From assembly GCA_963760875.1 (NCBI GenBank), contig CAVXEH010000002.1:336258-400257 (forward strand): 64,000 nt of DNA, in the 5' to 3' direction. The DNA is from an uncultured Chloroflexia bacterium. Its GTDB lineage: Bacteria; Chloroflexota; Limnocylindria; QHBO01. Under the pieces are notes generated by a model that worked only from the letters and a program-made list of their open reading frames with translations, did no database searches and was not told the DNA's origin. This document shows, piece after piece, positions 1,786 to 46,936 of this stretch; the stretch's first letter is position 1; every line of letters starts with the position of its first letter. Position numbers and translations under genes: made by a program.

Positions 1786-3510
1786 TCAGTGGGCGGCGAT
1801 GCTCACCCACGCGTAGTAGTTGTCCCCGGTGTTCTGGTTGTCCTGGGCGGTCGGCCGAAGGTTGGTGACCCACGGCTTGACCACGGTGAACCGCTGTCCG
1901 AAGCGGACGGGGATGATCGGGGCATCTGCCATGATCATCTCCTGCGCCTGGTTGTAGAGCGGGATCTGCTCATCGAGCGAGGCCTTCTGGGCCGCCTGGG
2001 CGAGCAGGTTGTCCAGGTCCTTGTTGCAGTAGCCCATGTAGTTGTTCGCCGAGGTACAGCTGAACAGGTCCGTCAGGAAGTTGTTCGGGTGCGGGTAGTC
2101 CGCGCCCCATCCCAGGCGGAAGATGCTGAACGGGTCACTGCCGAGGCGATCCAGGTAGGAGCCCCACTCGAGGCCGACAGCCTCGACCGAGATGCCGAAC
2201 GCATCGCGCCAGGCCTCGACCATGTAGTCGATCTTGTTCTCCCAGTTGGCGCCGGTGTTGTACCCGATCTGCAGCTTGAGGTCCGCGGGCTTCATGTTCA
2301 GCTCAGCCAGCGCCGCGTCGAAGTCGGCCTTGGCCTTTGCCTTGTCGAACGGATAGAAGACCGTGTCCTGGTGGCCGGGCATCCCCGGGGGCACCATGCT
2401 GTCGGCCACGACGCCGATGCCCGCGAAGGCGGTCGCCATCATGGTCTTCTTGTCGATGGCCTCGTTGAAGGCCTGCCGCAGCTTCACGCTCTTGGTGAAC
2501 GGGCTCTTGGCCTGCTTCACGTCGAAGCCGAAGTACGTGATCGACAGGGTCGCGCCCGAGACGACCTGCTGGCTGAGGGTCGGGTCGCTCTGGACCCGCG
2601 AGACCTCCTGGGACGGCACCAGGGCGGTGTCCTCCTCGTTGGCCTCGTACGCCGCGAGCACGGCGGTGGGATCGGTGATCATGGTGTAGTCGATCTCGGC
2701 GATGGTCGGTGCGCCGACGCCGAGCGCGTCACCGATGGCGGGGTTCCAGTTGGGGTTGGGCTTGAGGACGATCTTGGAGTTGTGGGTCCACTCCGTCATG
2801 GTCATGGGTCCTGAGCCGACCCAGTTGGCCGCCTCGGTGAAGTCCTTGGTCTCGACCCACTTCTTCTCGAGCGGCACGGTGCCGTAGAGGGTCGCGATGT
2901 ACACGAAATAGGCCGCCGGGTGGGCCAGCGTGACCACGAAGGTCTTGTCGTCGGGGGCCGCCACGCCGAACTTATCCAGCATGGCGTTGATGTCGGCGTC
3001 GCTCGTCGTCTTGGTGTCGACCGACAGCAGCTCGGAGCCGCCCTTGACGTCAGCCATGATGTAGCTGTAGCCCGCGGCATTGCGCGGGTCGATCAGGCGC
3101 TTCCAGCTGAAGACGAAATCACCGGCGACGATGGGATCGCCGTTGGAGTACTTGATGTTGTCGCGCAGGTGGAACGTGATCTGCGTCCCGTCAGGGCTGA
3201 TGTCCCAGCTCTTTGCCAGCCACGGGATGACGTTGAGCTGCTGGTCGTAGAAGACGAGCGTCGCTGTCGTCTGCCGCAGGACCGCGATCGACGCGCTGTC
3301 GGTCGCCTGGGTCGGATCCTGGCTGGGGGGCTCGGTGCCGAGGTCGGCGTGCATGACCTGGTCCGCCGCAAGCGGCGGAGTGGCCGACGGGCCGGTCGAT
3401 CCGCTTGCGCCTGGGCTCGTCGAGCTCCCCTGGCCGCCGCACGCGGCGAGCAGGAGCGCCAGGCTCAGCGCCATTCCCATGAGTCGTCTCACGGTTGCTC
3501 CTTCCTGCAT
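1786..3510 (-). CDS. ABC transporter substrate-binding lipoprotein, family 5 (peptide/nickel, DppA/OppA-like)
   Basis: A lipoprotein signal (LSLALLLAACGG) follows a probable start MQEGATV... (AAGGGA SD), or a GTG 18 nt downstream with a GGAAGGAG SD. Length and composition are typical of SBP family 5. The long N-terminal extension in the track is unlikely. Confidence 0.8.
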   Translation of the reverse strand: MQEGATVRRLMGMALSLALLLAACGGQGSSTSPGASGSTGPSATPPLAADQVMHADLGTEPPSQDPTQATDSASIAVLRQTTATLVFYDQQLNVIPWLAKSWDISPDGTQITFHLRDNIKYSNGDPIVAGDFVFSWKRLIDPRNAAGYSYIMADVKGGSELLSVDTKTTSDADINAMLDKFGVAAPDDKTFVVTLAHPAAYFVYIATLYGTVPLEKKWVETKDFTEAANWVGSGPMTMTEWTHNSKIVLKPNPNWNPAIGDALGVGAPTIAEIDYTMITDPTAVLAAYEANEEDTALVPSQEVSRVQSDPTLSQQVVSGATLSITYFGFDVKQAKSPFTKSVKLRQAFNEAIDKKTMMATAFAGIGVVADSMVPPGMPGHQDTVFYPFDKAKAKADFDAALAELNMKPADLKLQIGYNTGANWENKIDYMVEAWRDAFGISVEAVGLEWGSYLDRLGSDPFSIFRLGWGADYPHPNNFLTDLFSCTSANNYMGYCNKDLDNLLAQAAQKASLDEQIPLYNQAQEMIMADAPIIPVRFGQRFTVVKPWVTNLRPTAQDNQNTGDNYYAWVSIAAH

Positions 3511-3598
3511 TCCCTTGCGTTCGATGTGGGCTCGTGCCCGGGTGCACCCCGTTTGCCCATACCTACCCATGGGTCTCGCGCAAGGTTCACTCTCATAA

Positions 3599-3630
3599 CC
3601 ACATGGCGATATTTCTCGCCACATGGTGCG
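3599..3630. promoter_or_regulatory. Operator-like repeat overlapping the start codon of the ArsR-family regulator
   Basis: ACCACATGGCGATATTTCTCGCCACATGGTG: direct repeat CCACATGG x2 flanking an inverted core GGCGA/TCGCC. ArsR/SmtB regulators typically autoregulate through such dyads. Confidence 0.4.
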
Positions 3631-4759
3631 CACGAGAACCGCGAATCGGCTATCGTTGCGGCTCGTGGAGCTCGTCACCAACCCCGCCGCGCCGCCCGGC
3701 ACGCCGCGCATCCTCCCCGTACGGGTCGAGTCCGGCCCGGCCTTCGAGCTGCTGGCGACGCTGTGGGCATTCCTGCATCGGTCCCACCACCCCTACTACG
3801 ACGTTGGGCGCTCGTGGTTCGACCGCATCGCCGCCGATGCCCCCGAGACGGCCGCGCAGGCCCGGGCCTTCGCCGGCGCGTCACTCATGGTCTGGGACCA
3901 CGTCCTGGGCCTGGCGCTCGATGGCGGTCCGCCGTACGAGGTCGACCGCCTCCTCGCGCAGCTGGCGGCCACCGAACCCGAGGCGCTGCGCCTCGCACTC
4001 CTCGGCCGCTGGAACCGGCCGGTCCAGCGCGCCGTCGGCGCCGAACGAATCGACGAGGCGGCGGCGGGAAACGCGACGGCACAGCGCGACTTCATGCGCC
4101 TGGCCTGGCCCGACGAGGCACCCTGGCAGGCAGGGCTGCGGCAGCTGTTCCGGCACGATCCCGCGGAGACGCGCGACGAGCTGGTCGCGGTCCTGCGCGC
4201 CTGGAACCGCGACGTGTTCGCGAACTACATCGGCCCGGTGCAGCCGGCGCTGGATGCGGACGCGGAGGCCAAGCGGGCGAGCGCCGTGACCCTTCCCGCG
4301 CCGGAGCTCATTCGCTCGGCGCTGGACACCGGCTATACGCCCACCGGGGACGTCGCGGGCGTGGTGCTCGTCCCGTCCTTCGTGATCCGGCCGTTCGTGT
4401 ACTTCATCGAGCACGCCGACCAGATGCTCTTCCTGTATCCCGTCGCCGATCGCACCGCGGAGGCCGTGGACCCGGGGCCGCCCGAGCGGCTCGTCAAGCT
4501 GGCCCAGGCGCTCGGGGATCGCGGCCGGCTCGAGATCCTGGGCGTGCTGCGGGAGCGGGACATGGCCGTGAGGGAGATCGCCACCGAACTTGGGCTGGCC
4601 CGTTCCACCCTGCGCCACCACCTGGGGATCCTGCAGGGCGCCGGGCTGATCCGGCCGGTCCAGTCCGGCACCGGGTTCAGCCGCTTCCAGCTGCGCGAGG
4701 AGGCCGCGACGGACCTGGCGGAGCTGCTGGATCGGTTCCTGCGAAGATCCTCCGCATGA
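3623..4759 (+). CDS. ArsR/SmtB-family transcriptional regulator with a large N-terminal domain of unknown function
   Basis: The C-terminal winged HTH RLEILGVLRERDMAVREIATELGLARSTLRHHLGILQGAGLI is classic ArsR. The ~280-aa N-terminal domain has no recognisable catalytic motif. Confidence 0.7.
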   Translation: MVRTRTANRLSLRLVELVTNPAAPPGTPRILPVRVESGPAFELLATLWAFLHRSHHPYYDVGRSWFDRIAADAPETAAQARAFAGASLMVWDHVLGLALDGGPPYEVDRLLAQLAATEPEALRLALLGRWNRPVQRAVGAERIDEAAAGNATAQRDFMRLAWPDEAPWQAGLRQLFRHDPAETRDELVAVLRAWNRDVFANYIGPVQPALDADAEAKRASAVTLPAPELIRSALDTGYTPTGDVAGVVLVPSFVIRPFVYFIEHADQMLFLYPVADRTAEAVDPGPPERLVKLAQALGDRGRLEILGVLRERDMAVREIATELGLARSTLRHHLGILQGAGLIRPVQSGTGFSRFQLREEAATDLAELLDRFLRRSSA

Positions 4760-13183: not shown

Positions 13184-14166
13184 TGGCCGTGCCAATCCCC
13201 GCCGTAAACGCCAGGTCGCCGCAGCCGGGGGCTGCACGGACGGCGGCGATGCACTTCCTATCCGGGGCCGATGCCGCGGCCCTGGGCCTGGAGCGCCTGC
13301 TCCTCCGCGCAGAGTGGCTGCACCGCGACCGGCGACTGCACCGGGTGGCGGATCCGCTCATCGGTCGTCACGTGGCGCTCCTCTTCGAGAAGCCCAGCCT
13401 GCGCACGAAGATGAGCTTCGAGGTGGGGGTCGCCGCCCTGGGCGGCCGGGTCACCTACCTGGGGCCGACCGAGGTGGGCATCGGCACGCGGGAATCCGCC
13501 GCCGATGTCGGCCGCAACCTGTCGCGATGGGTCGACGCGGTGGTGGTGCGCACCTTCGCCCACGCCGCGCTGGTCGAGCTCGCCGAGGCGTCCTCGGTCC
13601 CGGTGGTGAACGCACTCACAGACCGCGAGCATCCCTGCCAGGCGCTGGCCGACGTGCTCACCCTGCGCCAGCACCTGGGCTCGCTCCGGGGCCGTCGTCT
13701 CGCGTTCGTGGGCGACGGGAACAACGTCCTCCACTCGCTGCTGCTCATCGGGGCGCTGGCGGGCCTGGAGATCCGGGTGGCGACGCCACCCGGATACGAA
13801 CCGGATGCCGCCATCGTGGAGCAGGCCCGCGCGTATGGGCAGCGAAACGGCGGAACCGTCGCCATCGGCTCCGATCCGGGCGCAGCGGTGGCCGGGGTGG
13901 ACGCGGTATACACCGACGTGTGGACCTCCATGGGAGCCGAGGCCGAGGCCGACGAGCGTCGAGCCCGCTTCGGGCCGTACCAGGTCAACGCCGCGCTGCT
14001 GGCGCATGCACCCGGCGCGCTGGTGATGCACTGCCTCCCGGCGCATCGCGGCGAGGAGATCACCTCCGATGTGCTGGACGGTCCGCACTCGGTCGTGCTG
14101 GACCAGGCGGAGAACCGGCTCTACGTGCAGCAGGCCGTGCTCCTGGAGCTCCTGCCAACCCGGTAG
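13183..14166 (+). CDS. argF: Ornithine carbamoyltransferase
   Basis: Carbamoyl-phosphate motif SLRTK (STRTR-like); HPCQ; DVWTSMG; HCLP. An alternative start is at MHFLSG (13249). Confidence 0.85.
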
Positions 14167-14348
14167 GCCCGGGCTGGCGCCACGCGTGTGGGCGGGCGCG
14201 GACCGGATTGCGACCCGCCGCCGCCCTTGACCTGTCACGTGCGGACCACAGCAGCGCAAGGCGACTGGGGCGGCTCTTCTCGTCATGCTCGAGCTGTGGG
14301 CTGAGCACGGAATCCCTGTCCAGACAGCGGCCGGCGGCCCGTGGACTC

Positions 14349-14446
14349 GCCTAACGCTACGGGTATGCGCAACTGACGAGTCGGGGATGTCCGGGGACCC
14401 GCCACGGCGAGTAACGCGCCCTGCATGCGCATCTGACGAGTCGGCA
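14349..14446. repeat. Two ~35-bp imperfect direct repeats in the 460-bp argF-REC intergenic region
   Basis: TAACGCTACGGGTATGCGCAACTGACGAGTCGG (14349-14386) and TAACGCGCCCTGCATGCGCATCTGACGAGTCGG (14408-14446). The second contains the perfect palindrome CATGCGCATG. Confidence 0.6.
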
Positions 14447-14628
14447 CGAGTGGGGAGCCGCTGGCGGAGCGCACCCGGGCCTCGACCACCCGTGAAACAG
14501 GCCCCTCAGCCTGTTCGGGTGTGACCTGTGTCACTGGCCGAGGCGTCCGGAAACGCTTCAGCCTGAGGCATTGATGCGCTGATGCCGCGCGGCGTCCCCG
14601 CGACGACGTCTCAAGGAGGCACGAGACC

Positions 14629-15027
14629 ATGACCCGCGTCCTGATCGTGAACCGCGACCGTTCAGTCGCGGACCGGATCGCCACCGAGCTTCGCGCCAGC
14701 GGCTACCAGACCGAGCAGTGCGGCGGCCCGCAGCAGGAGCCCTGCCCCGTGGTGGGCGAGCTTCCCTGTCCGCTCGTCGACCGCGCCGACGTTCTCGTCT
14801 ACGACGCCCACGTGGCCGGAGACGCCGACGGCAGCCATCGCCTGGTGAGCCACCTGCGCGACGTATACGCGGATCTTCCGCTGGTGCTCACCGGGACCGA
14901 CAGCACGCTCCGCTGGGTGGAGCGCGGCGGCCCGGAGCGCGTCTTCCCGCTGGGACCCGATCCCGAGCCTGCCGAGCTGCGCGCGACCATCGAGATCGCG
15001 CTCTCCGAGCAGGGAATGGCCGTGTGA
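14629..15027 (+). CDS. Stand-alone receiver (REC)-like domain protein, degenerate (no output domain)
   Basis: Strong SD AAGGAGG 9 nt upstream of ATG. CheY-like layout: VLIVNRD (beta1, DD replaced by NRD), VLVYDAHV (beta3 Asp), LVLTGTD (beta4 Thr), RVFPLGP (beta5 without Lys). 132 aa. Confidence 0.5.
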   Translation: MTRVLIVNRDRSVADRIATELRASGYQTEQCGGPQQEPCPVVGELPCPLVDRADVLVYDAHVAGDADGSHRLVSHLRDVYADLPLVLTGTDSTLRWVERGGPERVFPLGPDPEPAELRATIEIALSEQGMAV

Positions 15028-46693: not shown

Positions 46694-46936
46694 TCAACGA
46701 TGCTATCGCCGGTCAGCGGAGGCGGCGCATCGTTTCGGGCGTCTCGCCGAGCGCGAGGCTGGCACTTACGCAGCAGGCTCAGTGATCGTGAGCGCGGACT
46801 ACAGATGTTGTGGGGTTCGCTAGGCACGAAAGGAGTCGAGCCTTCGGTCCCCTGATCCAGAGTCAGGTGCCTTACCGCTTGGCCACGCCCCAACGTTTGA
46901 ACGGGACCCGGGCTTCGCCCGGCCTTCCTTTTGGGA

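Follow-up and report, generated by a model that had tools for sequence, protein, structure and literature searches.

The 460-base gap (14167–14628) that separates argF from the next operon in an uncultured Limnocylindria (Chloroflexota) genome is a mosaic and not a single structured RNA. It is made up of a terminator-like hairpin, a repeat-bearing insert and a promoter. The gap was studied in a 64-kb stretch of DNA, referred to here as the window; its 5′ neighbors are argG, a GNAT-aminotransferase fusion and argF, and on its 3′ side lie a gene for a 132-aa receiver-like (REC-like) protein and the genes for the alpha and beta subunits of a 2-oxoacid:ferredoxin oxidoreductase (OFOR). What appears to be one regulatory region comprises two independent modules with separate histories, visible only on comparison of relatives. 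The three-part explanation as a whole, including the role proposed below for the insert, is given a probability of about 0.45. Within it, the division into modules, a third copy of the repeat, the pattern of conservation and the fixed spacing of the promoter elements are shown by the sequences; the start of transcription, the regulator and whatever function the insert may have are inferred.

Two modules between argF and the REC-like gene

The comparison set comprised 80 loci with REC-like homologues (individual loci are denoted by L numbers), together with loci reached via argF and a lipase gene. Relatives in which argF is likewise followed by the REC-like gene (L003, L004, L014 and L099/L100) have spacers of 150–280 nt, which align only to ~14445–14628 of the window. 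L002/L088, with a divergent MurJ gene upstream, shares only 14494–14628. The short-spacer relatives and the L002/L088 comparison together assign the proximal ~138 nt to the REC-like gene and mark 14167–14444 as an insert. The distal module delimited in this way is 278 nt long and contains two direct repeats, and the repeat-bearing insert proper occupies ~220 nt (14225–14446) with three copies of a 42-nt near-palindromic unit. An earlier note on this DNA had suggested that the gap could be a regulatory RNA or leader, or an array of binding sites. That description suits the proximal 138 nt, but it does not suit the direct repeats, the insert being absent from most relatives with the argF–REC arrangement.

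The features of the gap and its 3′ neighbor are listed below by window coordinates; E values are from an nhmmer search with a profile of nine motif instances.

14190–14226, plus strand: GC-rich hairpin with 12-nt arms and a 13-nt loop, an inverted repeat 24 nt 3′ of the argF stop codon
14225–14266, minus strand: copy 0 of the 42-nt motif, inverted (E=2.8e-7); contains TTGACC and CACGTG
14267–14344, no strand: centre, 77 nt, between the inverted copies; contains a small hairpin, CUCG-N7-CGAG, at 14279–14293
14345–14386, plus strand: copy 1 of the 42-nt motif, the first direct repeat (E=1.1e-9)
14405–14446, plus strand: copy 2 of the 42-nt motif, the second direct repeat (E=1.5e-7); contains ATGCGCAT
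14447–14490, no strand: tail, homologous to the short argF–REC spacers of insert-less relatives (L003 and L099 align from ~14445)
14496–14515, plus strand: GC-rich dyad or hairpin of the GGGCC-N4-GGCCC type, its centre 22 bp 5′ of that of the next site; a dyad 22–23 bp from the site recurs in roughly half of the 31 REC upstream regions that were anchored, and it is kept in L002
14521–14536, plus strand: putative operator or activator site, GTGACCTGTGTCAC followed by TG; general form [G/A][T/G]GAC-N4-G[T/C]C[A/G/C]C-T[G/C]
14559–14564, plus strand: -10-like hexamer CAGCCT, a NANNNT at a fixed offset from the 16-mer site
14571–14628, plus strand: predicted 5′ leader of ~58 nt, its start placed from the -10 hexamer; hairpin CGCGG-5-CCGCG at 14588–14602 and Shine-Dalgarno (SD) sequence AAGGAGG at 14613–14619
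14629–15027, plus strand: REC-like gene, 132 aa, first gene of the OFOR operon

An identical REC-like protein (P0002) was found in two contexts, 3′ of an argF remnant and the element in L089 and beside divergent MurJ in L002/L088. The L002/L088 breakpoint (L088 1060–1512 against L089 1010–1512; window ~14494) lies just 5′ of the GGGCC-N4-GGCCC dyad.

Layout and distribution of the repeat insert

The two imperfect direct repeats that had been read from the window were confirmed at 14331–14384 and 14391–14444, with a 60-nt period and 70% identity over 54 nt. Their core, ATGCGCA[A/T]CTGACGAGTCGG, is exact in both copies, and the 20-mer core at ≤3 mismatches has just 2 sites in 64 kb against 0.07 expected. 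The second copy does contain a perfect palindrome, as the earlier note had stated, but this is ATGCGCAT (8 bp, 14425–14432), the sequence at this point reading CATGCGCATC and not CATGCGCATG. Similarly, the CACGTG palindrome is present, although at 14236–14241 rather than from 14237, and it is absent from L094, which has CACCTG.

Comparison with L094 revealed a third copy of the repeat, inverted, at 14225–14266, which had been overlooked. The 42-nt unit common to the three copies, TCGCCTAACGC-N16-TGACGAGTC or, written with its flanks, nnTCGCCTAACGC-N16-TGACGAGTCrr, is roughly palindromic, with GACTCG/CGAGTC as its outer arms. By manual count the spacing from TAACGC to TGACGAG was 16 nt in nine motif instances, copy 2 of L094 having TATCGC and TGACGAT. 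The insert is laid out as an inverted copy, 77 nt, a direct copy and then an extra direct copy 60 nt further on, as would be expected of a REPIN- or MITE-like inverted-repeat element with a solo repeat added.

The insert was found in three lineages only, namely window/L001, L083/L087/L089/L090 and L094, and always directly 3′ of argF or an argF remnant. The REC-like protein of the L083/L087 lineage, to which L089 and L090 also belong, is 87% identical to that of the window. In L094, whose argF is 91% identical, argF is followed by the element, a convergent GDSL lipase gene and then the REC promoter; the insert sits in the 293-nt spacer between the convergent argF and lipase genes. The lipase gene was rejected as carrier of the element, as L102 and L103 have convergent argF and lipase genes without the motif.

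The argF of L087, L089 and L090 (L087 1–680; L089 769–1176; window 13350–14166) has a 733-nt internal deletion, and its stop codon TAG is changed to CAG. Because the stop is lost, gene callers give a 135-aa fused open reading frame (ORF) that runs into the insert, to the equivalent of window position 14304. This argF looks like a pseudogene, with the downstream element intact. In L094, three tandem copies of a 9-mer, ACCGCAACG ACCGCAACG ACCGCTACG, lie at 3509–3535 between the argF terminator hairpin and copy 0; these are not in the window.

Conservation and folding of the insert

Over 14167–14490, the window and L087 are 88% identical with one indel in 323 nt. For the same pair, the neutral yardstick is the identity of 4-fold sites (46–73%) and of the argF pseudogene remnant as a whole (73%). 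Copies 0 and 1 are the most conserved parts, with 97% and 98% identity to L087 and 82% and 83% to L094, respectively; copy 2 has 85% identity to L087 and 56% to L094, where it is degenerate. The centre (14267–14344) is 48% identical to that of L094, and the hairpin, centre, linker, copy 2 and tail all lie at 43–56% in this comparison, with 54–67% at 4-fold sites. Identity to L094 above the neutral level was thus confined to copies 0 and 1. The earlier note had held that absence of conservation in relatives would make a locus-specific role unlikely; the repeats are indeed absent from most relatives with the argF–REC arrangement, yet they are conserved in two other lineages.

RNAalifold analysis of the three lineages paired copy 0 with copy 1 and kept 27 pairs in all three. 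Three of the copy 0/copy 1 pairs vary, and these are paired in 3 of 3 lineages except for one helix-end pair that is open in L094. The CUCG/CGAG stem in the centre is kept in all three lineages with differing loops, and the hairpins of the centre and linker persist in L094. Singly, L087 and L094 fold better than shuffled sequences (z -1.8 to -4.1). The consensus fold energy for the three lineages was modestly better than that of column-shuffled alignments refolded in the same way (z -2.2 for the plus and -2.4 for the minus strand). For the window sequence by itself, the label of a structured region that the gap had been given is not borne out, with minimum free energy z values of +0.18 and -0.96 (14167–14520). 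The Rfam check that had been suggested gave no family in the gap: gathering thresholds were applied to the whole window and E≤10 to segments of 3 kb and 0.5 kb about the gap, and the only matches, to microRNAs and scr5239, were due to chance and far below gathering scores.

Interpretation of the insert

We tentatively favor the reading that the insert is an inverted-repeat element, resembling repetitive extragenic palindromic (REP) sequences or miniature inverted-repeat transposable elements (MITEs), that persists at the arg operon's 3′ end, where it would act in cis as a hairpin. This reading is favored because the insert goes with the argF stop codon in every case and with the REC promoter in none, because it lies between convergent genes in one lineage, and because the unit is near-palindromic and the inverted pair is the conserved part. 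The element would have entered the 3′ flank of argF in a common ancestor of the three lineages and would then have been retained, forming a long imperfect cis hairpin that ends the arg operon. Among the roles considered, it might add to termination, insulate the promoter that follows or protect the 3′ end. We do not think that the insert is a regulator site for the REC-like gene.

Several observations weigh against the cis-hairpin reading or against the three-part explanation that contains it. No further copies of the motif were found in the 64-kb window, in ~100 related loci (~0.5 Mb), in viral contigs or, by BLAST, in plasmids. A dispersed or mobile family is unproven because the motif was met at no second locus. 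No target-site duplication was seen by eye, the flanks being GCCGCCGCCC against GGATG or CACGAG, and no U-tracts follow the hairpins. The insert of the window alone folds no better than shuffles (z -0.16 for the plus and -1.69 for the minus strand), it can be assigned to neither strand, and copies 0 and 1 are only ~65% complementary in the window by manual count. Compensatory pairs numbered 13 against 9.6±2.5 in refolded column shuffles, which is not significant (p=0.13). The conserved positions are the same in all copies, a pattern that equally fits recognition by a sequence-specific protein; as inverted copies of a motif are complementary by construction, pairing cannot separate hairpin function from such recognition. 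Finally, the promoter that forms the third part of the mosaic is a predicted one. A metagenome scan for the exact 20-mer gave six matches, of which four were chance occurrences in unrelated DNA and two (L083 and L087) the orthologous locus.

The shared conserved positions lead directly to an alternative in which a sequence-specific protein binds the three 42-nt units as duplex DNA; it could be a looping regulator of the REC–OFOR promoter, a recombinase or a nucleoid protein. Across nine instances, TCGCC, TAACGC, TGCGCA and TGACGAGTC vary little or not at all, in contrast to the 8-nt interior; copy 1 shows no compensation for the changes that turned TAACGC into TTGCGC in copy 0 of the window; and units of ~40 bp that are near-palindromic would suit a binding protein. 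The locus is also a rearrangement hot spot, as seen in the L002 breakpoint, the lipase gene of L094 and the L087 deletion. We nevertheless consider this unlikely. In L094 the element lies between convergent gene ends ~1.2 kb from the REC promoter and so has no promoter to act on; most genomes with a REC-like gene and this promoter lack it; a period of 60 bp does not correspond to an integral number of helical turns; and nothing resembling the 42-nt motif was found 5′ of the arg genes or in the rest of the window. The more specific suggestion that the repeats form an array for the adjacent orphan receiver found no support, since the REC-like protein has no DNA-binding domain and the similarity of its family to receivers is weak (E ~0.003).

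A stretch of non-coding DNA under purifying selection might instead be a locus-specific non-coding RNA, either a stand-alone small RNA (sRNA) or a processed 3′-untranslated region of the arg transcript, in which the repeated CUGACGAGUCGG would be a single-stranded or protein-bound module. A spacer of 293 nt, as between the convergent genes of L094, exceeds what a simple terminator would need, the plus strand retains several G-U pairs, the centre and linker hairpins persist in L094 at ~45% sequence identity, and the -35-like TTGACN of copy 0 is kept in all three lineages. This reading is doubtful, with odds no better than those of the protein array: no acceptable -10 lies 16–18 nt from TTGACN by the clade's own -10 consensus, no terminator-like site was found, no Rfam family was matched at E≤10, covariation is not significant, the minus strand folds as well as the plus strand or better, and only three lineages are available. 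Least probable, at long odds, is that the insert is a functionless relic of an old insertion or tandem duplication whose similarities reflect ancestry or local recombination. Such a relic would account for the absence of the insert from most relatives, its dispensability for argF and the REC-like gene, the neutral identity of centre, linker and copy 2 between window and L094, and the unremarkable fold of the window. It is at odds with the 88% identity to L087 with a single indel, against 46–73% at 4-fold sites and 73% in the argF remnant, with copies 0 and 1 at 82–83% to L094 in surroundings of 43–56%, and with the two paralogous direct copies sharing the same 24 core positions in two lineages. 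Whatever its role, the repeat insert, a short non-coding element that selection has maintained in three uncultured lineages, would be of more consequence if it proved unique to the locus and transcribed.

The hairpin 3′ of argF

The GC-rich hairpin at 14190–14226 is probably a terminator or 3′-end hairpin of the arg operon. At the equivalent place, L094 has a different hairpin, GCGGCG-8-CGCCGC, with 43% sequence identity to the window. The U-tract-less, GC-rich hairpins at the argF stop in the window, L094 and L102 resemble the hairpin-only ("I-shaped") intrinsic terminators of high-GC bacteria. Unlike these, the 220-nt module with three repeats far exceeds a simple terminator, and a role in termination is predicted only.

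In L102/L103 (3001–3900), argF and the GDSL lipase gene (L094 3778–4719) are separated only by a perfect 12-bp hairpin, CCGGAGCCCGGG-TTGA/TCGA-CCCGGGCTCCGG; in L103, only a 65-aa OTCace fragment is called at the argF position. Positions 14197–14215 of the window hairpin (CGCGGACCGGATTGCGACC) match 14667–14685 (codons 13–19 of the REC-like gene) at 17 of 19 nt, which is probably chance. A duplication of the REC promoter or 5′ end was rejected, the best local match covering only 19 nt (p=0.017 against shuffles).

Comparison of the insert with known elements

The insert shares several traits with REP sequences and their derivatives (BIME and REPIN), namely imperfect palindromes of ~40 nt in alternating orientation, a location 3′ of a stop codon or between convergent genes at the end of an operon, and an inverted doublet able to form a long hairpin. 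REP families consist of tens to hundreds of dispersed copies and are associated with a RAYT (IS200/IS605-like) transposase. The insert differs in that its arms are 65–73% complementary and in the lack of a second locus in the sequence searched. Likeness to MITEs, including the Tn3-derived TIMEs, lies in the two terminal inverted repeats of ~40 bp round a short non-coding core (~160 bp in total) and in the insertion into an intergenic spacer that is "empty" in relatives; unlike MITEs, it lacks a target-site duplication and was not met in further copies.

The 38-bp terminal repeat of the Tn3 family starts with GGGG and ends with ACGYTAAG, and the inner end of the repeat here, GCGTTAGG, resembles the latter. 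A Tn3-type terminal repeat was rejected all the same: the outer ends are CCCC, CTCC or CCTT with no GGGG, and the BLAST search of plasmids, which are rich in Tn3 ends, was empty.

Other identities were also rejected. In a CRISPR mini-array the repeats would not differ at 8 of 34 positions, the "spacers" would not also be similar and the third copy would not be inverted. The repeat RNA of a type III toxin-antitoxin system would call for repeats more alike than these and without an inverted copy, and the REC-like gene is also found where the repeats are missing. CUGACGAG resembles the CUGANGA core of the hammerhead ribozyme, but no GAAA follows and no model matched. Tandem guanidine-II hairpins were dismissed on account of the ACGG loop being present in one copy only, ARG boxes for want of a fit to TGCAT-N4-ATGCA and of a similar site near the arg genes, parS on the lack of conservation of CACGTG in L094, and dif on the lack of an AT-rich centre. 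The 42-mer does not suit a promoter, since 19 nt separate TTGACN from TAGCGT and promoters in the copies would point towards one another.

Probable promoter, operator and leader of the REC-like gene

The proximal segment 14491–14628 is very probably the promoter, operator and leader of the REC–OFOR operon. Three elements claimed for it in the earlier note were recovered, the stem-loop AACAGGCccctcaGCCTGTT at 14496–14515, the inverted repeat GTGACctgtGTCAC at 14521–14534 and the SD sequence at 14613–14619. The layout of dyad, site, -10-like hexamer and leader is conserved in dozens of Limnocylindria relatives. To define its geometry, 31 distinct REC upstream regions (REC identity 43–100%) were anchored on the site. 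The centre of the dyad lies 22–23 bp 5′ of the centre of the site. The GTGAC-N4-GTCAC palindrome remains perfect as far as relatives with 71% REC identity, and conservation of its left half-site extends to those with 43%. A NANNNT hexamer, usually [C/G]A[G/C]NNT, was found 21–22 nt 3′ of the site in 30 of the 31 sequences and almost never at neighboring offsets. A single match to the composite pattern is present in the window (0.26 expected). The fetched loci, ~0.5 Mb in all, contain 36 matches, 35 of which stand immediately 5′ of REC homologues. The remaining copy of site, spacer and -10 (L065 3548–3597) precedes a CBS-pair gene (3597–4022), with the hexamer ending 5 nt before the ATG; this gene is a possible second member of the regulon.

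Transcription would start ~7 nt after the hexamer, at ~14571, which would center the site at -42.5 to -43.5, overlapping a weak -35, and would place the GC-rich dyad at about -65. The block 14552–14610 (59 nt), which spans the hexamer and most of the predicted leader, is identical in L087, from which the window differs at 27–54% of 4-fold sites, and nearly so in L003, L004, L005, L014 and L094, and indels in the leader among relatives fall in hairpin loops only. Because it is so conserved, the leader gives no covariation to score. A sigma-54 promoter, which requires an invariant GG-N10-GC at -24/-12, was rejected, as relatives have CTGT, CTGA or CTCG in place of the CTGG that follows the site.

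In L046 (~2450–2500), the hexamer of the REC promoter ends 6 nt before the ATG and there is no SD sequence. In the L026-like clade (L026, L041 and others, ~2430–2500), the hexamers GACAGT and GAAAGT likewise stand just before the ATG with no SD sequence. This proximity of hexamer and start codon suggests that the REC mRNAs of L046 and of the L026-like clade are leaderless.

Candidate regulators

The site would fit either a class II activator site of the CRP/FNR type or a repressor operator of the Rex type, and its geometry is equally consistent with both. In class II CRP/FNR promoters, TGTGA-N6-TCACA or TTGAT-N4-ATCAA is centered near -41.5. Here, TGTGACCTGTGTCACT (14520–14535) is a GTGA-N6-TCAC palindrome that would be centered ~42–43 nt 5′ of the predicted start; the palindrome and a poor -35 overlap, and its upstream half-site is the better conserved of the two. 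Unlike a CRP or FNR site, it marks no broad regulon: in the DNA examined it is nearly confined to REC-like genes.

OFOR, ADP-forming acetyl-CoA synthetase (ACS), malic enzyme and pyruvate phosphate dikinase (PPDK) are redox and central-carbon classes typical of Rex control, and the genes found beside REC-like homologues would suit redox or carbon control. The Rex operator is TTGTGAA-N4-TTCACAA (PMC2883068, PMC5355995). The site shares with it the GTGA...TCAC core about a 4-nt centre (GTGAC-N4-GTCAC against GTGAA-N4-TTCAC) and the overlap with promoter elements; it differs in that the flanking TT/AA and the A/T adjacent to the core are not kept. Repression and activation are indistinguishable from the site sequence.

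To our knowledge, almost nothing has been known of transcription signals in this uncultured class of Chloroflexota, for which the dyad, an operator at about -42 and a -10 of the form [C/G]A[G/C]NNT provide a concrete promoter/operator model. By this model, redox or carbon status would control a Cys-rich receiver-like protein whose gene is found in the company of those for OFOR, ADP-forming ACS, PPDK and malic enzyme. It is conceivable, though we think it improbable, that both modules are of wider consequence, the 42-nt module being an undescribed single-locus cis element (a protein-recognized insulator or terminator, or an sRNA) and the promoter marking a dedicated Limnocylindria regulon. Such a regulon would couple the Cys-rich pseudo-receiver to the enzymes of the pyruvate node across Limnocylindria.

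Coding potential and gene context

The statement in the earlier note that the gap holds no plausible coding sequence was upheld: GC by codon phase is flat (0.69–0.75), compared with 0.88/0.79/0.49 in the flanking genes. The ATG of the 79-aa ORF of the gap is AGG in the relative L087. A coding reading was rejected on the flat GC phase, on the lack of an ORF in common with L087 and on substitutions without 3-nt periodicity (17/10/11). The in-frame TGA codons within the repeats are not evidence of recoding.

The 132-aa REC-like protein itself has no Pfam match. In its family, C31, C39 and C47 are invariant and lie in a CGGP...CP...PCP insert, and the protein could be a redox or metal-binding pseudo-receiver. 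The genes 3′ of its homologues vary and include those for OFOR, ADP-forming ACS, PPDK, malic enzyme and a transketolase-like protein; further 3′ neighbors are an FAD/NAD oxidoreductase, a CBS protein, an arginase, a peptide-binding protein and a radical SAM protein.

Elsewhere in the window, GC content is 62–65% over ~26 kb (20000–46000), compared with 70–76% in the remainder. This low-GC stretch, which ends near the only tRNA gene of the window (46821–46892, minus strand), may be an integrated island.

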